64,000 bases of DNA, taken from the NCBI GenBank assembly GCA_965203555.1, contig CBDBCY010000004.1, positions 136,961-200,960 of the forward strand, given 5' to 3'. The first letter of the stretch is position 1. Every line of letters begins with the position of its first letter. The translations under genes and the position numbers were made by a program. The notes below the pieces were generated by a model. That model was not told the origin of the DNA. It made no database searches and saw only the letters and a list, made by a program, of their open reading frames with translations. Origin of the DNA: Acidimicrobiia bacterium. Lineage in GTDB: Bacteria > Actinomycetota > Acidimicrobiia > Spongiisociales > ZC4RG35. Positions 3,445 through 61,420 of this stretch are shown in pieces.

Positions 3445-4437
3445 ATGCTGGAGGATCGCCGCGCCGAGATATTGCGTTCCCTCGTGGAGTGCCACATACG
3501 GACCGGAGCCCCGGTGAGCTCCCAGATGGTCCTTGAGCACAGCGATCTGGAAGTCTCCCCCGCCACCGTCCGAAAAGAGTTGGCCCGGTTGGAAGAGGAC
3601 GGGTATGCAGACCAACCTCACACCTCGGCCGGCCGGATTCCCACGGCTGCGGCCTACCGCTTTTACGTGGACAACCATGCGGCCTTCCAGTTGCGCCGGG
3701 CGGTTCGCTCCCGCATCTCGTCTTTTTTCGCCGAGGTGGAGTTGGAATTGGACCGGTTGCTTCACTCCACTACCCGCCTCCTGTCCGACATCACCCGGTT
3801 GCCGGCGGTGGTGGTGGGTCCCCACCTGGCTGCGGAGCGCATTCGCAGCATTCACCTGGTGTCCCTGCAACTGCGTATGGCCCTGCTGGTCGTGGTCACG
3901 GAATCGGCGCGGGTACTGCAGGAGATCTGCCGCCTTCCGGCGCCTTTGACCGGAACGGAGATTTCGGAAATGGAGACGCTGCTTCGCAGTCACGCCCTGG
4001 GATCACCGCTCGGTTTGCCGGCCCCGCCCGCCGTTGCCGCGCCCGGGGTCGGGGGTCCGTCCTTTCAAAGTTGCTTCCAGGAGGTTTGGGACACCCTGGA
4101 GAGAACTGCGCGGCGAGCGTCCGATGTCTACGTGATGGGAACCGGACGATCGGCCCATCTGTGGGATGATCTGGATGCGGTCGCCCAGGTGTTGGGGGTG
4201 CTGGAGAGGGAGGCGGCAGTGCTCAACCTGTTGGCCGCCGATCCGGGCATCAACATCCGCATCGGGGAGGAGATTCCCGATCTGGAAATGGATCTGGCAG
4301 TGATCTCCACCTCGTTCATGGCCGGAAACTCCGCCGGACGGATTGGAGTCCTGGGGCCGATGCGCATGGACTACGGCCGTGCCATCTCGGTGTTGCAGAG
4401 AGTAAGCGCCGGGCTGGCCGATCGCATCGCCGTCTGA
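3445..4437 (+). CDS. hrcA: Heat-inducible transcription repressor HrcA
   Basis: 330-aa ORF, N-terminal winged-helix region (RRAEILRSLVECHIRTGAPVSS), classical position directly upstream of dnaJ. Confidence 0.9.
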   Translation: MLEDRRAEILRSLVECHIRTGAPVSSQMVLEHSDLEVSPATVRKELARLEEDGYADQPHTSAGRIPTAAAYRFYVDNHAAFQLRRAVRSRISSFFAEVELELDRLLHSTTRLLSDITRLPAVVVGPHLAAERIRSIHLVSLQLRMALLVVVTESARVLQEICRLPAPLTGTEISEMETLLRSHALGSPLGLPAPPAVAAPGVGGPSFQSCFQEVWDTLERTARRASDVYVMGTGRSAHLWDDLDAVAQVLGVLEREAAVLNLLAADPGINIRIGEEIPDLEMDLAVISTSFMAGNSAGRIGVLGPMRMDYGRAISVLQRVSAGLADRIAV

Positions 4438-4450
4438 ACAACCGGTACCG

Positions 4451-5549
4451 ATGGCCAAGGACTATTACCAGATTCTGGGAGTGGATCGCGAAGCCGACTC
4501 CAACCAGATCAAGAGGGCCTTCAGAAAACTCGCCCGCCAGACCCATCCCGACGCCAATCCCGGAGATCCTCAGGCGGAAGCCCGATTCAGGGAAGTGGCG
4601 GAAGCATACGAGGTGCTGTCCGACCCGGATCGCCGCCGGTCCTATGACCAGGGGGAGCAGATCGACATCTCGGGTATGTTCGGTGATCTCGACGACCTGC
4701 TTCGCTCGGTATTCGGAGGGTCGGGTTTCTTTGGGGGTCAAGGCGCCTCTCAACGTTCCCGCGGGCAGGACATCCTGGTGAGAGTCGGACTGAGTTTGGA
4801 AGAGGCGGCGTTCGGCGTTGAAAAGAGAGTGGAATTCGAAGCCCAGGCGGCCTGTTCCACTTGTGGTGGGGACGGGGGCGGCCGCCGGGTCTGAGATAAC
4901 TTCGTGCCGGGGGTGTGGGGGATCAGGGATGCTGCGCTCCACGCGTTCCAGCTTCTTCGGGTCGATGGTGACTACCTCCACCTGTCTCCGATGCGGGGGG
5001 AGAGGTCGGGAAGTCACCCAGATCTGTGGAAAGTGCCAAGGCGCGGGTGTCCATCCCGAGCGTCAGGCTCTGAAGGTCGAAATACCGGCCGGGGTTTCGG
5101 AGGGAACTCGTCTCCGCCTGAGAGGCAGGGGGGCGGCCGCTCCCCTGGGAGGCATGCCGGGGGATCTGTATGTGGAGGTGCTGGTTCGTTCCGACAGCCG
5201 GTTTGAGAGAGAGGGGGACCATCTCTACCATCGGGTCACGGTCGGGATCGCAGAGGCGGCTCTGGGAGCGGAAGTGAAGATACCGCTGCTCGAGGGCGGC
5301 TTCCACACTCTTCGCGTCCCGCCCGGTACCCAGCCGGGATGGGTCAGTCGGCTGCCGGGACATGGAACGCCTCTCATGGGTGGAAGACGGAGGGGGGACA
5401 TGTTGGTGGAGGTGGAGGTTGAGATTCCCAGGACGGTTTCCCGTGAAGAGGAGGACCTGCTGAGAGAACTGGCCGACCTGCGAGGGGAGTCTCCGCTGCC
5501 TCGATCTTTTCGAAGGGCAAGACGCCGGAGATCCGGCAAAAGACGGTAG
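4451..5549 (+). pseudogene. dnaJ: Chaperone DnaJ, reading frame broken by a 1-nt shift (ORFs 4451..4894 and 4818..5549)
   Basis: First ORF carries J domain (HPD in RQTHPDANPGD), G/F region and start of Zn finger (CSTCGGDG); second ORF in another frame continues AAAGSEITSCRGCGGSG...CLRCGGRG...CGKCQGAG and the C-terminal domains. The switch falls in the run gacgggggcggcc at about 4871..4883. Confidence 0.85.
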
Positions 5550-11500: not shown

Positions 11501-12388
11501 GTGAGATCGGGCTTCGTCTCGGTGGTGGGGCGGCCCAATGTCGGCAAGTCCACCCTGGTGAATTCCTTGGCAGGGCAGAAGGTTGCTATCACCTCTCATC
11601 GCCCCCAGACCACCCGAAACGCCATCCGGGCGGTGGTGACCGATCCCCACAACCAACCTCCCGACTGGCAGATGGTGCTGGTCGACACGCCCGGATTGCA
11701 TAAGCCCCGTAATGAGCTGGGTGAGCGGCTGAACCGGCTGGTGTACGGCGCCCTGGCTGATGCGGATGTGGTGGCCTTCCTGGTGGATGCCCGCCAACCG
11801 GTCGGGCCGGGGGATCGAAGGATCGCTCAACGCTTGGCCCAGGACCGGTCGAAGGTGGTGGTGCTGGTAAACAAGACGGACCGGTTCTCCAAGGAGAAAA
11901 TCGCGGTCCGGCTCATGGAGGTGGCCCGGTGGGACTTCGCCGCTTATGTGCCGATCAGCGCCTTGCGCGGTGACAATCTCCCGGCGGTGGTGGCGGAGAT
12001 CTGCGGCCGGCTGCCCGAAGGGCCGATGTACTTTCCCCCCGGCGCCGTCACCGATCAACCCGATTCATTTTTCGCCTCCGAGGTGATCAGGGAGAAGTTC
12101 CTGGCTGGATTGCACCAGGAACTCCCTCATTCGCTCTTGGTGGCGGTGGAGGATTTCCATGTCCGTGGGGATGGGCTGGTCACCGTCAGCGCCAAGCTGG
12201 TGGTGGAGAGTCCCTCCCAGAAGGGAATAGTCATTGGAAGGGGAGGCGCTCGTCTACGTGAGCACGGCACTGAGGCGCGACGGGAACTTGAGACGTTTTT
12301 CGGCGCCAAAGTGTACCTGGACCTGCGTGTGGTTGTGGAGAAGAAGTGGCAACGGAGGTCGGTGCTTTTGGATCGATTCGGGTTCTGA
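11501..12388 (+). CDS. era: GTPase Era
   Basis: GRPNVGKSTL, DTPG, NKTD motifs and KH C-terminus. ORF track opens at 11291 inside the previous gene; GTG at 11501 (VRSGFVSVVGRPNVGKS) fits the usual Era N-terminus. Confidence 0.9.
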   Translation: MRSGFVSVVGRPNVGKSTLVNSLAGQKVAITSHRPQTTRNAIRAVVTDPHNQPPDWQMVLVDTPGLHKPRNELGERLNRLVYGALADADVVAFLVDARQPVGPGDRRIAQRLAQDRSKVVVLVNKTDRFSKEKIAVRLMEVARWDFAAYVPISALRGDNLPAVVAEICGRLPEGPMYFPPGAVTDQPDSFFASEVIREKFLAGLHQELPHSLLVAVEDFHVRGDGLVTVSAKLVVESPSQKGIVIGRGGARLREHGTEARRELETFFGAKVYLDLRVVVEKKWQRRSVLLDRFGF

Positions 12389-12654
12389 ACTGCTCGTTCG
12401 GGCAGATACGAACCCCCGCTGGCGGCGAGTGTTCGTGCCGCGGAGGGTTCTGTGCCTCTGTTATCTCGGGGTGAAAGCAGGGAAGTATGTCGAGATTTGG
12501 GGAGGGGCTACCTGTGGTTTAGTGCAAGGCGTGGGCCGATGACCCCAATGGTGGGGGTCCTCCACAATTCGGGTGCGTGAGATCGGAGGCCAGGAGCGAG
12601 TATGTGCAGGGAGAGCAAGGCATCCGGACACCGATGGGTTCCCCCTCTTTCCGG

Positions 12655-12888
12655 CTATCGCTTATCGAGATACTCCAAGACCTGTCGGAAACCCCGGTCG
12701 AGTTTCTCGTCCGTGGCCTGACGATTCACGTCTATTTTGACGTTGAGCAGGTGAATGTCGTGTTTCACCTCGGCGAAATCGTGTTTCACTTCGGCGATAT
12801 CCTGTTTCACCTCCGCGATGTCGCGTTTCACCTCGGAGATGTCGTTCCCGATGCGTCTCTGCAGGCTGTTGAGGGCATCGGCGGTCAT
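12655..12888 (-). CDS. Small coiled-coil protein, paralog 1 (77 aa), unknown function
   Basis: ORF MTADALNSLQRRIGNDISEVKRDIAEVKQDIAEVKHDFAEVKHDIHLLNVK...; heptad repeats DIxEVKx; AAGGA 10 nt upstream of the ATG. Strand choice is not certain (see rejected). Confidence 0.5.
   Translation of the reverse strand: MTADALNSLQRRIGNDISEVKRDIAEVKQDIAEVKHDFAEVKHDIHLLNVKIDVNRQATDEKLDRGFRQVLEYLDKR
12760..12843. repeat. 4 x 21-bp in-frame tandem repeat (consensus gtgtttcacctcggcgatatc)
   Basis: Units at 12760, 12781, 12802 and 12823; each encodes one DIAEVKx heptad on the minus strand. Confidence 0.8.
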
Positions 12889-13130
12889 CGAAGCGACGTC
12901 CTTGGCGTCATGCTTCCCGAGTATATCCGGGATCGGCTGTCAATGCCACAGACGCGTCCGCTGCTTGCCTGTGATCTCATCCGGTCCGTCCACCGCGTTC
13001 CAGGATCATCTTCTCTTTGTTCAGCGTCCTTGCTCTGGTAGCGGCCCTCTGTCGGGAGATCGGGAGAGTCGTTTCAATGTAGCAGGGATAGCATGGCAGT
13101 CGGACACCGATGGGTTCCCCCTCTTTCCGG

Positions 13131-13367
13131 CTATCGCTTATCGAGATACTCCAAGACCTGTTGGAAACCCCGGTCGAGTTTCTCGTCCGTGGCCTGACGA
13201 TTCACGTCTATTTTGACGTTGACCAGGTGAATGTCGTGTTTCACTTCGGCGATGTCCTGTTTCACCTCCGCGATGTCGCGTTTCACCTCGGAGATGTCGT
13301 TCCCGATGCGTCTCTCCAGGCTGTTGAGGGCATCGGCAGTCATCGAAGCGATGTCCTTGGCGTCCAT
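13131..13367 (-). CDS. Small coiled-coil protein, paralog 2 (78 aa; 70 aa if started at the conserved internal ATG at 13343)
   Basis: ORF MDAKDIASMTADALNSLERRIGNDISEVKRDIAEVKQDIAEVKHDIHLVNVK...; same family as 12655..12888 but one heptad shorter. Confidence 0.5.
   Translation of the reverse strand: MDAKDIASMTADALNSLERRIGNDISEVKRDIAEVKQDIAEVKHDIHLVNVKIDVNRQATDEKLDRGFQQVLEYLDKR
13236..13298. repeat. 3 x 21-bp in-frame tandem repeat (same family as 12760..12843)
   Basis: Units at 13236, 13257 and 13278. Confidence 0.8.
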
Positions 13368-13595
13368 GCTTCCCGAGTATATCCGGGATCAGCTATCAAG
13401 GCCACAGACGCGTCCGCTGCTTGCCTGTGATCTCATCCGGTCCGTCCACCGCGTTCCAGGATCATCCTCTCTTTGTTCAGCGTCCTTCTTTTGGCAACGG
13501 CTCTCAATAACACAGAAACCAATGGCGCAGACCAAGGCCGTTCGTTTACTGAAGTAGAGCATTTTGCTGTTGTCTGATATCCTTATTGGTGCATT

Positions 13596-16500
13596 ATGAA
13601 AAAAATAATGGCAGCCAACCGGGGGGAGATAGCCGTCCGGATCATGAGGGCCGCGACGGAACTCGGTTTGCGAACTGCAACCATCTACTCGAACGAGGAT
13701 CGCTACAGTCTGCACCGTTTCAAGGCGGACGAAGCTTACGAGATCGGAAGCGACAAGGGGCCGGTGGCGGCCTACCTTGACATCGACGGGATTATCACTC
13801 TGGCCAGGGAGAGAGGGGTGGACGCCATCCATCCCGGTTACGGGTTCCTGTCCGAGAATGCCAGGTTCTCGCGAGCATGTGCGGAGGCCGGCATCACATT
13901 CATCGGCCCGCCACCCGAGTTGCTTGAAGCGCTCGGCGACAAGACCGCGGCGCGGCGACTGGCTGCGCAGGCCGGGGTACCCACCGTCCCCGGCACCGGT
14001 CTGGCGCCCGATGATCCCCGGGAGATTGTCCTCAGTGCGGAATCGGTGGGCTTTCCGCTGATAGTCAAGGCGTCGTTCGGCGGCGGCGGTCGGGGTATGC
14101 GAGTGGTCAACAGTCCCGATGAACTGCTGGGCAGGCTGGAGGAGGCGCGGGGGGAGGCTCAGCGTACTTTCGGGGACGGCTCTGTCTTCCTGGAGCGTTA
14201 CATCGCCCGGGCCCGCCACATCGAAGTGCAGATTCTGGCCGACTCGCACGGCTCGGTGGTCCACCTTTGGGAGCGTGATTGCTCGGTACAGCGGCGCCAT
14301 CAGAAAGTTGTGGAACTGGCGCCGGCGCCGAATCTGGCGGATCAACTCCGCGACGAGATTTGTGCGGCGGCCATCCGGGTTGCCCGGACAACCGGTTACG
14401 TCAATGCCGGCACCGTCGAGTTCCTGGTGGATGCTGATACGGGTGAGTGGTTCTTCATGGAGGTCAACCCGCGAATCCAGGTGGAGCACACCGTTACCGA
14501 GTTGGTGACCGGTGTCGACCTGGTCCGGTCGCAGATTCTGGTGGCGCAGGGATGCCGGCTCCACGAGGCGCCCCTTTCCATCCCTGCGCAGAGCGAAATC
14601 CCTCGTCGGGGAACCGCCATACAGTGCCGCATAACGACCGAGGATCCCAAGAACGAGTTCTCCCCTGACTACGGGCGCCTGCAAACTTACCGCAGCCCGG
14701 GAGGTTTGGGGATCCGACTCGATGGAAATGCCTATACCGGGGCGGTGCTCAGCCCGTTTTACGATTCGCTCCTGGTCAAACTCACCGCGTCGGATACCAA
14801 CCTGCCCGACGCCTGCACCCGGGCCGACCGAGCCTTGCAGGAGTTCCGGGTCCGGGGTGTCGAAACCAACATTCAGTTTCTGCGCAATGTCATCAACCAT
14901 CCCGATTTTCGCAACGGCGTGGTAACCACCCACTTCCTGGAGGAGACGCCCGAACTCTTCGAAATACGACCGCCTCGTGATCGCGCCAACCGGCTGCTGA
15001 GCTATATCGGCGACACCATCCTCAACGGGAATCCCACCGTGGTGGGCAAGGACCATCCGACGAATCTGAATGCCCCTCCCATAGTGCCGGTGGACATGAG
15101 TGCCGAGCCTCCGCCCGGTACCCGGGATCTGCTGCTGGAGATGGGACCGGACAAGTTCGCCGAGTGGGTCTGGGATCAAAAGCGCCTTCTGGTGACCGAC
15201 ACCACTTTCCGTGACGCACATCAGTCGCTTCTGGCAACTCGGGTGCGCACCTACGATTTGTTGGGTACGGCCGGGGCAGTGGCGCGGCGTCTGTCGAACC
15301 TGTTCAGTGTCGAGATGTGGGGCGGCGCGACCTTCGACGCAGCGTTGCGTTTCCTGTACGAGGACCCGTGGGAGCGTTTGCGTCTGATGCGCGAGGCGAT
15401 TCCCAACATCTGTTTCCAGATGCTGCTGCGAGCTTCCAATGCGGTGGGCTACACCAGCTATCCGGACAATGTCGTGCGTGAATTCACCATTGAGGCCGCC
15501 CGGCAGGGGATCGATGTTTTCCGGGTTTTCGACTCCCTGAACGACGTGCGCAACATGGAGGTGGCGATCGAGGCGGTGCGCAGCACTCATGCCGTTTGCG
15601 AGGCCGCCATCTGCTATACGGGCGATCTCCTCGATCCGGATCGCCCCAAATACAGTCTCAACTATTACGTGAACCTTGCCCGCCGTCTACAGGAGATGGG
15701 GGCGCACTTACTGTGCATCAAGGACATGGCGGGGCTGTGCCGTCCTTATGCCGCCGACCAGTTGGTGAGGGTCCTGCGGGAGGAGGTGGGCATTCCGATC
15801 CACTTCCATACCCACGACGCCAGTGGTATCCAGGCGGCGACTCTCATAAAGGGGGGCGAGGCCGGGATAGACATCATAGACGCGGCCGTGGCGGCGGTGT
15901 CGGGTTCCACCAGCCAACCCAACCTGAATACGATGGTCGGTTCGCTGGAAGGTACCGAACGCGACACCGAACTCGACTCGGATGCCTTGGGCGATTGCTC
16001 CCTTTTCTGGGAGACGGTGCGTACCTACTACCAACCCTTCGACAACTCTCCCAAGTCCGGCAGTGCCCGGCTGTACGACCATGAGATCCCCGGCGGGCAG
16101 TTCACCAATTTGCAACAGCAGGCGACCGCGCTGGGCCTGGGTCAACGCTGGCGAGAGGTAGAAGAGATGTACGCGGATGTCAACCAGATGCTGGGGGACA
16201 TTGTGAAGGTCACTCCGTCCAGCAAAGTGGTCGGCGATCTGGCTCTGTTCCTGCTCTCCAAGGGGATGACGTGCGATGAGGTGCGAGGGCTTCCTCCCGA
16301 CCACAACATCGGATTCCCCGAATCGGTGGTTGACATGATGCGAGGGTCGCTCGGTGAGCCTCCCGGCGGTTGGCCCGAGGACATTCGAGAGATACTGCTG
16401 TGCCGCAACCGGCCTATCGAGGGACGGGCGGGCGCCAAACTCCCCAGCGCCGACATCGGTGCGGCCGTAGAGACGGCTACGGAGTTGCTGGGACATCGAG

Positions 16501-45930: not shown

Positions 45931-45989
45931 GAAAGGAGGAATTTCCCACCCCACAACTCGGCGTGCAGCGGAGTTATCTCACAACAAAC

Positions 45990-46150
45990 AAGCGCCAGGC
46001 CTCTTGAACCGCCGGTCGGCGGATTCCGGAGGTGACGAGGAGGAAGGCGATCGAATCTTTCGGCGGATGCCTTTCCGGCCACCACAGTCGTGACGATCGG
46101 AGCAAATCCCGCCGGTAACGGCGGGGACAAAAGACGGTCGAAGTGGAGCG
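45990..46150 (+). ncRNA. glmS: glmS ribozyme / GlcN6P riboswitch
   Basis: Directly upstream of glmS: AGCGCCAGG (45991) ... GACGAGGAGGAAGGCGATCGAATCTTTCGGCGGATGCCTTTCCGG. This closely matches the remembered Bacillus core GACGAGGAUGGAGGUUAUCGAAUUUUCGGCGGAUGCCUCCCGG. A downstream hairpin CCGCCGGTAACGGCGGGG and GACAAAAGA follow. Ends are approximate. Confidence 0.75.
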
Positions 46151-46196
46151 TTCCGCAATGCGCGCGCAGAGGGGGTTTGTGGAAATTGGCGCGATC

Positions 46197-48032
46197 ATGT
46201 GCGGAATAGTTGGTTATGTTGGCTCCCGCCCTGCTCGAGATTTGTTGCTGGGTGGTTTGGCCCGGTTGGAGTACCGGGGCTACGACTCGGCGGGAATGGC
46301 TATCGGTCAGAACGGCGCATTGACAAGTGTCCGACAGGTTGGAAAGATCTCCGATCTGGCCGCGGTGGTCCAGGAAGGTTCGGAGTCTTTCCCCGGGGGG
46401 TATGGAGTCGGGCATACCCGATGGGCGACTCACGGGGCGCCCACCACTCCCAATGCTCACCCTCACTTCGATTGCTCGGGGGAGGTGGCGATCGTCCACA
46501 ACGGGATTATTGAGAATTGGACGGAGTTGAAGGCTTGGTTGGAAGGCCGGGGGCACGGATTTGCCTCCGACACCGACACGGAGGTGGCCGCCCATCTCAT
46601 CGAGGAACTGTCTTCGCTCCCCCTGTCAGAGGCAGTGGCGCAGGTCCTGCGACGCTGTGAGGGCGCCCTGGCCCTGGCGGTGATTCGCCGCTCCGATCCA
46701 GGGCTGGTTGTGGGAGGTCGGAAGGGAAGCCCGCTGGTGATCGGCCGGGGATCGGGGGAGAATTTCCTGGCTTCCGACATCCCTGCGTTCATGGCCCATA
46801 CCCGTCGCATGATGGTGGTTCCCGAAGATCGGGTGGTGGAGATCCGCTCGGACTCGGTGCGCATCACCGACCTACGCGGACAGGAGCAGGAACCAGAGGA
46901 ACGGGAGGTGGAATGGGACGTGGAGGCCGCCGAGAAGGGCGGCTATCCCACTTTCATGCTCAAGGAGATATACGAGCAGCCCAAAGCCGTGGCGGAGACC
47001 CTGTTGGGACGCATCAGTTCCACCGGTCTGCCCATGCTGGAGGAAACGGGAGTGACCGCCGAGATTGCCAAGGACGTGGACAAGGTGTTCGTGGTGGCCT
47101 GCGGTACCTCCTATCACGCCGGGATGATGGCCAAATACGCATTGGAGCGATGGGCGAAGCTTCCGGTGGAGGTAGATCTGTCCTCGGAGTTCCGGTATCG
47201 AGATCCGGTTCTCAACTCCCGCTCGCTGGTGATCGGCATCAGCCAGTCGGGAGAGACTGCGGACACTTTGGGCGCGATCCGATATGCGCTCGGACAGGGC
47301 GCCCGGGTGGCGGCGGTGACCAACGTGGTCGGATCGTCGCTGGCCCGAGAGGCGCACATGGTGCTGCAAACCAGGGCGGGCCCCGAAATCGGAGTGGCGG
47401 CTTCCAAGACCTTCATCACCCAGATGGCCCTGCTTCAACTATTGGGTCTGCATATGGCCATCGAGCGAGGCGTGATGAGTCCCGCAGAAGCGGCAGGGCC
47501 GGTGAATGCGCTGCGCAGCCTGCCTGATCGGCTCGATGAAGTGTTGGGCCTTTCCGATCAGATGCTGGAGTTGGCGCAGGAGTGGCGGGACGTGCGAGAT
47601 TTCTTCTTCCTGGGCAGGTCTGTCGACTATCCGGCGGCTCTGGAAGGCGCCTTGAAGCTGAAGGAATTGTCCTATGTGCGAGCCGAGGGTTATGCGGCCG
47701 GTGAGATGAAGCACGGTCCCATCGCCCTGATCGAGCCGGGAGTGGTGGTGATCGGAGTGGCCACCGACCGCCGGCTGCGTCCCAAGATGTTCTCCAATCT
47801 CTCGGAGATGAAGGCGCGGGGCGGTACGGTGGTGACCCTGGTCGGAGAGGAGGACCGGGCCGAGGCGGCAATCACCTCCGATCTGGTGATAACCCTTCCC
47901 GAAGACGCTGATCTGATCGGAGCGGTGCTGGCAGTGGTTCCGCTGCAACTCTTCTCCTACCACCTTGCCACCCTCAAGGGACTGGACGTCGACCAACCCC
48001 GCAACCTTGCCAAGACGGTGACCGTGGAGTAG
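46197..48032 (+). CDS. glmS: Glutamine--fructose-6-phosphate aminotransferase
   Basis: ATG 46197 gives the obligatory MCGIVGY N-terminus (Cys2 nucleophile); two SIS domains; ends ...TVTVE. ORF track opens at 46143. Confidence 0.95.
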   Translation: MCGIVGYVGSRPARDLLLGGLARLEYRGYDSAGMAIGQNGALTSVRQVGKISDLAAVVQEGSESFPGGYGVGHTRWATHGAPTTPNAHPHFDCSGEVAIVHNGIIENWTELKAWLEGRGHGFASDTDTEVAAHLIEELSSLPLSEAVAQVLRRCEGALALAVIRRSDPGLVVGGRKGSPLVIGRGSGENFLASDIPAFMAHTRRMMVVPEDRVVEIRSDSVRITDLRGQEQEPEEREVEWDVEAAEKGGYPTFMLKEIYEQPKAVAETLLGRISSTGLPMLEETGVTAEIAKDVDKVFVVACGTSYHAGMMAKYALERWAKLPVEVDLSSEFRYRDPVLNSRSLVIGISQSGETADTLGAIRYALGQGARVAAVTNVVGSSLAREAHMVLQTRAGPEIGVAASKTFITQMALLQLLGLHMAIERGVMSPAEAAGPVNALRSLPDRLDEVLGLSDQMLELAQEWRDVRDFFFLGRSVDYPAALEGALKLKELSYVRAEGYAAGEMKHGPIALIEPGVVVIGVATDRRLRPKMFSNLSEMKARGGTVVTLVGEEDRAEAAITSDLVITLPEDADLIGAVLAVVPLQLFSYHLATLKGLDVDQPRNLAKTVTVE

Positions 48033-61103: not shown

Positions 61104-61185
61104 GCCGGGATACCCAAGCGGCCAAAGGGAGCAGACTGTAAATCTGCCGGCGATGCCTTCGGAGGTTCAAATCCTTCTCCCGGCA
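61104..61185 (+). tRNA. tRNA-Tyr (anticodon GTA), long variable arm
   Basis: Acceptor GCCGGGA/TCCCGGC, anticodon stem-loop GCAGA-CTGTAAA-TCTGC, T arm GGAGG-TTCAAAT-CCTTC; CCA not encoded. Confidence 0.9.
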
Positions 61186-61209
61186 CCGGCTTTCCCGCAA
61201 AGACCAAGC

Positions 61210-61283
61210 GCCCCCTTAGCTCAGACGGCCAGAGCGCCTCCATGGTAAGGAGGAGGTCTCCGGTTCGAATCCGGAAGGGGGCT
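61210..61283 (+). tRNA. tRNA-Thr (anticodon GGT)
   Basis: Acceptor GCCCCCT/AGGGGGC, anticodon stem-loop CCTCC-ATGGTAA-GGAGG, T arm TCCGG-TTCGAAT-CCGGA. Confidence 0.9.
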
Positions 61284-61314
61284 CCCCCGTGCGGCCCGCG
61301 CCGACTACGGGTAA

Positions 61315-61388
61315 AGGCGGCGTAGCTCAGTTGGTAAGAGCGCTCGACTCATAATCGAGAGGTCGGCAGTTCAAGTCTGCCCGCCGCT
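61315..61388 (+). tRNA. tRNA-Met (anticodon CAT), elongator type
   Basis: Acceptor GGCGGCG/CGCCGCT, anticodon stem-loop CTCGA-CTCATAA-TCGAG (no GGG/CCC initiator signature), T arm GGCAG-TTCAAGT-CTGCC. Confidence 0.88.
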
Positions 61389-61420
61389 ACATGGAACCAA
61401 AGACAGCTATCGATAAATAC

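Follow-up and report, generated by a model that had tools for sequence, protein, structure and literature searches.

A tandem gene pair between era and pyc of an Acidimicrobiia bacterium belongs to a very rare family of small, putatively coiled-coil proteins

The gap between era and pyc in an Acidimicrobiia bacterium (NCBI GenBank assembly GCA_965203555.1, contig CBDBCY010000004.1) contains a duplicated DNA segment, and we asked what this segment encodes, how its two units came to be so alike, and whether it is a gene pair, a regulatory or structural element, or a piece of mobile DNA. The analysis covered 64 kb of the contig (positions 136,961 to 200,960 of the forward strand), referred to here as the window. 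We found that the gap contains two tandem copies of a small minus-strand gene for a coiled-coil protein. With their homologs in other genomes, these genes constitute a previously undescribed, very rare small-protein family, whose kind (a small coiled-coil) and arrangement (tandem paralogs with concerted evolution) are both ordinary.

The left border of the gap is formed by a plus-strand open reading frame (ORF) for an Era-type GTPase, with its stop codon at 12388, whose ortholog on the contig of a sister strain (L002) contains the Pfam domains MMR_HSR1 and KH_2. On the right, a pyruvate-carboxylase-type ORF of 1146 aa starts at 13596 and carries N-terminal NRGEIAVRI and C-terminal EAMKM biotinylation motifs. 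A tandem duplication had been proposed for the gap from an earlier reading of the sequence alone (the original prediction), and it was recovered by repeat finding and by pairwise alignment, with the same two units present in L002. Three pairs of direct repeats were detected, 12606-12823/13082-13299 (spacing 476 nt, 92% identity), 12779-12909/13234-13364 (455 nt, 97%), and 12909-13049/13365-13505 (456 nt, 93%). The spacing shifts from 476 to 455-456 nt because of a 21-nt, one-heptad indel within a 21-nt tandem array; pairwise alignment of the units also showed the second, 1-nt indel that had been described at the upstream ATG. From the repeat families and alignments, unit 1, next to era, was placed at 12579..13054, and unit 2, era-distal and pyc-proximal, at 13055..13512, each comprising on the minus strand a promoter/spacer, an ORF (77 aa in unit 1, 78 aa in unit 2), and a 3′ tail. 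In the alignments, the high-identity cores span 12606-13049 in unit 1 and 13082-13505 in unit 2, both on the minus strand, and unit 1 differs from unit 2 by one additional 21-nt heptad and by a 1-nt deletion after the upstream ATG. The array, identified with Tandem Repeats Finder, encodes heptads of the form D-I-x-E-V-K-x on the minus strand and comprises 4.2 copies of the 21-nt repeat at 12758-12845 in copy 1 and 3.3 copies at 13231-13300 in copy 2. No further copies or fragments of the unit were found by BLAST elsewhere in the window. Hints of a third, decayed unit had been reported for 12389-12600; BLAST found no similarity there, and the best local score of 21 was equalled or beaten by 48 of 300 shuffles. 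Only 12579-12625 is related to the repeat, and this is the diverged 3′ tail of unit 1. The spacer at 13500-13599 is AT-rich, as had been noted, with a GC content of 0.43 versus 0.615 for the whole window.

The ORF list placed two small-protein gene copies on the minus strand, oriented away from pyc, at the positions originally given for them. Copy 2 (13131..13367; 78 aa, MDAKDIASMTADALNSLERRIG...KLDRGFQQVLEYLDKR) has three heptads and an intact family-type start. Copy 1 (12655..12888; 77 aa from an internal Met, MTADALNSLQRRIG...) has four heptads and, by translation and alignment, is preceded on the same strand by a remnant of the family-type start, MTPRTSLR followed by a stop codon (12885..12911). 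The products can be told apart by the stretches ...SLQR/HDFAEVK in copy 1 and ...DIASMTADALNSLER in copy 2; database protein P0001 is an exact match to the copy 1 product, and none of the database proteins returned was identical to copy 2. Comparison of reading frames with seven homologs at 25-50% nucleotide divergence gave a ratio of nonsynonymous to synonymous differences (pN/pS) of 0.44 in the minus-strand sense frame versus 0.99 in the antisense frame, and the invariant A-D-A-L-N-S residues showed synonymous codon changes among homologs. GC content at the three codon positions of the small coding sequence was 0.62/0.25/0.76, the third-position value (GC3) equalling that of era, pyc, and other neighbors. 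By these comparative measures, the minus-strand ORFs were shown to be coding frames under purifying selection.

Does the protein belong to a known family? The original prediction did not recognize one, and the curated databases gave the same answer. Pfam returned no family at threshold (best E = 0.0037, 17.7 bits versus a cut-off of 34.6), PHROGs gave a best partial match at E = 2e-4 without family membership, PADLOC returned no match of any weight (best E = 0.0019), and a profile search of the PDB gave no family match; all of these libraries, NCBIfam included, yielded nothing beyond generic coiled-coil noise. The best NCBIfam hit was NF053525 (ssr2422 family thylakoid membrane protein; E = 8e-5, 23 bits versus a cut-off of 38). 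NF053525 resembles the window protein in being small (~77 residues) with a coiled-coil N-terminal part, but the alignment covers profile positions 1-54 of 77 only, the window protein lacks a hydrophobic segment, and the hosts of its family are non-photosynthetic Actinomycetota. A literature search on ssr2422, the PDB 7o97 protein, and leaderless genes in sponge Acidimicrobiia yielded nothing useful.

Relatives were recovered from larger collections. A word-indexed search of 5.8 billion proteins identified 13 clusters, and an exhaustive profile search of 1.84 billion representatives gave 126 matches, about 20 of which were full-length relatives; the others, which include the fibritin-like, phage-type protein P0019, share heptads only. 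Among the latter, the long proteins P0026, P0028, and P0031 (290-370 aa) contain D-V-A-E-V-K-Q arrays with nearly the same heptad, encoded by 21-nt repeats of highly variable copy number, but they have different N- and C-terminal domains, lack the N- and C-modules of the family, and match only through their heptads, at profile positions ~19-45. We defined the family by full-length colinearity of (M/V)DA(K/R/Q)D..(x)3(A/I)(D/E)ALN, a heptad array, (V/I)K(I/V)(D/E)V, and a C-terminal (L/M)D(R/E)GF(Q/R)Q...(K/R)R. Both window ORFs have this structure; they can be aligned over their full length to at least 10 homologs and score E = 1e-41 to 1e-44 in hmmsearch. The consensus reads (M/V)DA(K/R/Q)D...ADALNS(L/M)E.R in the N-module, (V/I)K(I/V)DV in the mid-segment, and (L/M)D(R/E)GF(Q/R)Q..E.L.(K/R)R in the C-module, and the invariant residues are A11, D12, A13, L14, N15, S16, R20, K43, D45, H47, K52, E62-F68, E73, and R78. 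In several homologs, the (K/Q)(L/M)D(R/x)GF(Q/R)Q module at the C-terminus is doubled, and 22-residue repeats occur in more distant members (homologs concerned: L008 6001-6261, P0007, P0009, P0014, P0025, P0029, and P0034); the family thus varies by module shuffling in addition to heptad number. We note that gene callers handle the family poorly, mis-setting starts: P0004, P0006, P0007, P0014, P0016, and P0039 carry long spurious N-terminal extensions (114-198 aa) or internal-Met starts.

A scan of 185,579 species, one genome each, detected 7 loci, all in metagenome-assembled genomes (MAGs) of Acidimicrobiia, and a scan of Joint Genome Institute metagenomes added 1 further locus; all taxonomically placed relatives lie in Acidimicrobiia MAGs. 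A family this small and rare does not fit the suggestion that it is expanding. In one genome of 4.1 Mb, three copies were found at dispersed sites together with a fourth, divergent one. At locus L012, whose genome has at least four members, a second and divergent member (4412-4630, minus strand; hmmsearch E = 9e-9) is encoded on the strand opposite to the main copy, at a distance of ~1.4 kb. The sponge Aplysina aerophoba harbors one of the hosts, the OM1-clade Acidimicrobiia symbiont bin76 (MPNA00000000; PMC5649159). The genomic contexts of the family are unrelated to era-pyc and to one another and include a suf operon, a PLD-like gene with a DDE transposase, an SLH protein with AbiEii, HepT/MNT, DUF2442/DUF4160, and IS110, ISL3, and an rve integrase, giving these neighborhoods a recurrent toxin-antitoxin/transposase flavor. 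Between loci, nucleotide similarity extends no further than ~40-50 nt upstream of the coding sequence and 0-100 nt past its end. Because the sites are non-syntenic and often lie among toxin-antitoxin genes and transposases, the distribution points to a dispensable accessory protein, which may be structural, an adaptor, or related to phage or host interaction, rather than to a housekeeping one. Separately, we observed that a repeat of ~210 bp is very abundant in Acidimicrobiia MAG OY760694.1, dispersed in both orientations at 70-85% identity; the 36 kb sampled contain at least 7 copies (L009 7863-8075; L010 688-897, 2180-2388, 9966-10163, and 10205-10416; L012 9164-9372 and 10971-11178); this repeat is absent from the window.

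The family product is an acidic protein of 70-90 residues that has no hydrophobic or signal segment. It consists of a conserved N-terminal module (DAKD..ADALNSLERR.G), a variable number of D-I-A-E-V-K-x heptads with beta-branched or aliphatic residues at the a and d positions, and a conserved C-terminal module of 22 residues (VKIDVN....EKLDRGFQQ.LE.L.KR), and heptad periodicity is mixed with an 11/22-residue one. AlphaFold2 (AF2), run with the family alignment, predicted one unbroken helix over residues 3-77 of copy 2 with a mean predicted local distance difference test score of 95.9. Most likely, the protein forms a parallel homo-oligomeric coiled-coil rod; a parallel bundle is favored because I/V residues, which are beta-branched, occupy a/d positions together with D/K at g/e, and the putative rod is possibly a trimer.

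Among characterized small bacterial proteins that are coiled coil throughout, ZapB (81 aa) and the Lpp helix (trimeric, 58 aa) are similar in size to the window protein, and as in the latter, a single amphipathic helix built on a heptad core takes up nearly the whole chain and should yield a homo-oligomeric rod; in Lpp, rod length is functionally meaningful. The window protein differs from both in having no significant sequence match (Pfam LPP E = 0.039; ZapB not matched), no signal peptide or lipobox, a host of a different phylum, no cell-division or envelope gene context, and a conserved D-R/E-G-F motif. Assignment as a Braun lipoprotein was rejected on the PF04728 score (E = 0.039, 14.7 bits versus a cut-off of 29.1) and on the MDAKD start without a hydrophobic leader. 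A WXG100/Esx pair was likewise rejected: the proteins have no W-x-G, AF2 predicted a single unbroken helix, the neighbors are era and pyc, and an LXG domain was matched only at E = 0.026.

How might the genes be expressed? At 9 of 9 independent loci, both window copies included, a TANNNT hexamer lies 6-8 nt before the ATG or GTG of the conserved MDAKD start, compared with a frequency of 0.9% per locus by chance, and the upstream DNA is otherwise unrelated among the loci. In the window, the hexamer survey identified TATACT on the minus strand at 13376..13381 in copy 2, 8 nt before the ATG, and at 12920..12925 in copy 1, where a promoter scan also detected it together with GTGGCA 18 nt upstream. 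TANNNT -10 elements of Actinobacteria are located ~7 nt before the +1 of leaderless mRNAs, and the position of the hexamer at all loci therefore implies leaderless or near-leaderless mRNAs for this family.

The likeness of the two units was examined in a four-way alignment of both copies in the window and in the sister strain. L002 is an independent metagenome contig with 98.7% identity to the window over 10.9 kb and carries both units, adjoining era; the repeat is therefore not an assembly artifact. The two units had been called near-identical. This held for a core of ~420 nt, comprising ~120 nt upstream, the coding sequence outside the heptads, and 31 nt downstream, where the copies are 96.6-100% identical outside the heptad array, but not for the edges, where identity falls to 62% both at the 5′ edge and in the 3′ tail. 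The tail differences between copies are common to both strains, and the core contains 3 sites fixed between paralogs versus 19 copy- or strain-specific singletons. As the edges are ~38% diverged and the core ~3%, with few paralog-fixed sites and both copies present in the sister strain, the simplest reading we infer is an old tandem duplication whose core has probably been homogenized repeatedly by gene conversion. The earlier suggestion of a recent expansion does not agree with copies and diverged edges that are common to both strains. The homogenized core and diverging flanks of the pair are those of tandem paralogs under concerted evolution. The two copies have 3/4 heptads in the window versus 4/3 in the sister strain; family members overall have 1-4 of them, and 21-nt units are gained or lost in frame between copies and strains, as in the repeat-number variation of bacterial surface and contingency proteins. 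Unlike contingency proteins, however, the small gene has start-codon lesions outside any homopolymer tract and no sign of phase variation, and unlike bacterial surface proteins, its product has no evidence of surface exposure. We also note that at the end of L002 (1-52), just past the distal unit, 52 nt are unrelated to the pyc spacer of the window (13531-13595); a palindromic CCGGGAAACCCGG motif occurs in this stretch, which matches L012 4004-4030, from a different Acidimicrobiia genome, over 27 nt (E = 3e-5) and may be a repetitive extragenic palindrome-like or insertion element that broke the assembly.

The start codons of the pair raise the possibility that one copy is a decaying pseudogene and that a redundant duplication is being resolved by loss. 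In copy 1 of the window, one G has been lost right after the family-type ATG (12909-12911), and in the sister strain, the ATG of the other copy has become ACG (L002 218-220), leaving each of the two known strains with one intact and one start-damaged copy by different mutations. Both lesions are recent, since they are strain-specific singletons. However, both damaged copies retain a complete frame from an internal Met; as originally described, AAGGA is found 10 nt upstream of the internal ATG in both window copies. In copy 1, the frameshifted 8-codon ORF, MTPRTSLR plus stop, ends in a TGA that overlaps the ATG of the internal Met (ATGA), which could allow coupled re-initiation. Past the lesion, copy 1 has neither a stop codon nor a frameshift, and its protein shares 93% identity with that of copy 2; gene conversion, moreover, can repair start lesions. 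The damaged copies may accordingly still be made in an N-terminally shortened form. The occurrence of start damage in one copy per strain could reflect coincidence, relaxed selection on a redundant start, or isoform switching, and we regard decay of one copy as possible although on balance doubtful.

Taken together, these data are probably best explained by two tandem, independently promoted accessory genes. According to this proposal, transcription would start at or next to the ATG from the TATACT 8 nt upstream, giving a leaderless mRNA, and the products would associate in parallel into a homo-oligomeric coiled-coil rod. Slippage or unequal exchange at the 21-nt repeat would add or remove units and so lengthen or shorten the rod by ~1 nm at a time, gene conversion would keep the ~420-nt core, including the ~120 nt of upstream spacer, nearly identical, and the start-damaged copy in each strain might still be read from the internal Met preceded by a Shine-Dalgarno sequence, yielding the N-terminally shortened product. 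Several points weigh against this explanation. No homolog of known function was found, and no neighbor protein recurred in an all-against-all comparison of the flanks of 10 loci or in Pfam searches on 20 neighbors. A pN/pS of 0.44 represents moderate constraint only, and with one start-damaged copy per strain, one copy may simply be decaying. The AF2 monomer model of a lone helix says little about assembly, and we infer the transcription start, the leaderless mode, and the translation of either copy alike. Finally, calling the duplication old assumes that the 62%-identical edges are truly homologous; if they are unrelated flanks sharing microhomology (CCGATCTC), the duplication could be younger, while still predating the split of the strains.

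We also considered whether the protein derives from, or interacts with, trimeric coiled coils of the phage fiber/fibritin type and acts in phage defense, as a decoy, or in superinfection exclusion, with heptad variation reflecting an arms race. The N-module, heptads, and K-I/V-D-V show colinear similarity to the repeat unit of the 536-aa protein P0019 (E = 2e-15 over 5 stretches; hhalign probability 70%, E = 4e-5), which itself matches the PHROG "fibritin neck whisker." Through this repeat unit, the family shares the motif order ..LN.....IG / D-I-A-x-V-K-x-D / K-(I/V)-D-V with fibritin/neck whisker and short tail fiber proteins, and like phage fiber coiled coils, it has beta-branched residues at both core positions. 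Weak matches to tail-fiber PHROGs (E = 0.006-0.09) and to a solved short tail fiber (PDB 9cuy, E = 0.0015), and the frequent location of homologs amid toxin-antitoxin or Abi genes and transposases, point in the same direction. Yet all the fiber/fibritin similarities are subthreshold, and coiled-coil composition alone yields such matches. The window protein, moreover, stands alone at 70-90 aa without a foldon, collar, receptor-binding domain, or phage neighbors; its copies lie between era and pyc with no phage genes near, PADLOC gave no match of any weight, and GC3 is native rather than foreign. We consider a phage connection of this kind unlikely. A more elaborate scenario, which we put forward only as a long shot, is that Acidimicrobiia, some of which are sponge symbionts, possess in this family a lineage-specific coiled-coil "ruler" or decoy of tunable length that perhaps originated from a fibritin-type repeat of phage. 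Slippage of the 21-nt repeat and shuffling of the 22-residue C-module would reset the rod length, and the tandem pair with its alternately disabled starts would provide two length or N-terminal isoforms in phage/host interaction.

Independently promoted small genes also account for the DNA between the ORFs, which had been proposed to be a regulatory or structural element. If the conserved ~240 nt were functional in their own right, as a structured RNA, riboswitch, small RNA, or protein-binding regulatory region, this could explain why ~120 nt upstream match at 96.6% between the units, no less than the coding sequence does. However, because these ~120 nt are promoter and spacer inside the conversion tract, their conservation is explained as a by-product. 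In other genomes, the DNA upstream of the homologs is unrelated except for the -10-like hexamer, and conservation extends only to the sister strain. At E ≤ 1, Rfam 15 returned no family except a chance snoRNA match (12535-12610, 15.8 bits versus a gathering score of 49), neither the upstream 145 nt (z = -0.77) nor the 242-nt inter-ORF segment (z = 0.00) folded more strongly than shuffled sequence, and no inverted repeats were detected in 12300-13650. The palindrome GACGCGTC is present in both units as reported (at 12951 and 13407), but it is not remarkable: it occurs 5 times in the window versus 1.85 expected, a count reached by 5 of 100 shuffles, and we rejected it as a meaningful site. A functional element in this segment is very improbable.

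Equally little speaks for the 476-bp unit as a mobile or recombination-born module, such as a miniature inverted-repeat transposable element-like repeat, an integron-type cassette, or an insertion sequence fragment with a passenger ORF. The unit is cassette-like in size and has a single small ORF, family members occupy unrelated sites near IS110, ISL3, and DDE transposases and contig ends, and one genome has 3-4 dispersed copies. The units, however, lack terminal or attC-like inverted repeats and show no excess DNA or RNA fold, there is no integrase or transposase near them, no additional copies or fragments exist in the window, and between genomes, the similarity around the coding sequence has no defined shared ends. 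An integron cassette had been suggested by the small-ORF-rich loci L014 and L015; these are 1x-2x long-read contigs whose fragmented ORFs are probably sequencing-error artifacts, and with no attC-like palindrome in the window unit, we rejected this candidate.

That the plus-strand ORFs 12577..13041, 12755..13216, 13110..13430, and 13231..13557 represent the true genes, with the minus-strand ORFs as their shadows, is scarcely credible, for although they are sizeable (106-154 aa) and the antisense frame opposite the small coding sequence has no stops in 11 of 11 homologs examined, that frame shows the pN/pS near 1 given above, the plus-strand ORFs cross unit boundaries and differ between the two units, and stop-free shadow frames arise in that frame when TTA, CTA, and TCA codons are avoided, as in this GC-rich genome. 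A 733-aa ORF antisense to pyc (13389..15590, minus strand) could, like other shadow ORFs, mislead gene callers.

Two further features were noted elsewhere in the window. A glmS ribozyme (Rfam RF00234, 86.7 bits) was detected at 45980-46150 on the plus strand, directly upstream of and slightly overlapping a 629-aa ORF (46143..48032) that is presumably glmS. Three tRNA genes are clustered at 61104-61389 on the plus strand (Rfam tRNA matches of 55-73 bits).

The importance of the tandem pair would rise with a role in symbiosis or phage interaction, neither of which is required by the present evidence. As it stands, the locus adds a very rare protein family, clearly marked in sequence and consistent in its putatively leaderless promoter architecture, one placed member of which comes from a sponge symbiont, and it provides a compact example of concerted evolution combined with in-frame change of repeat number in a tandem gene pair.

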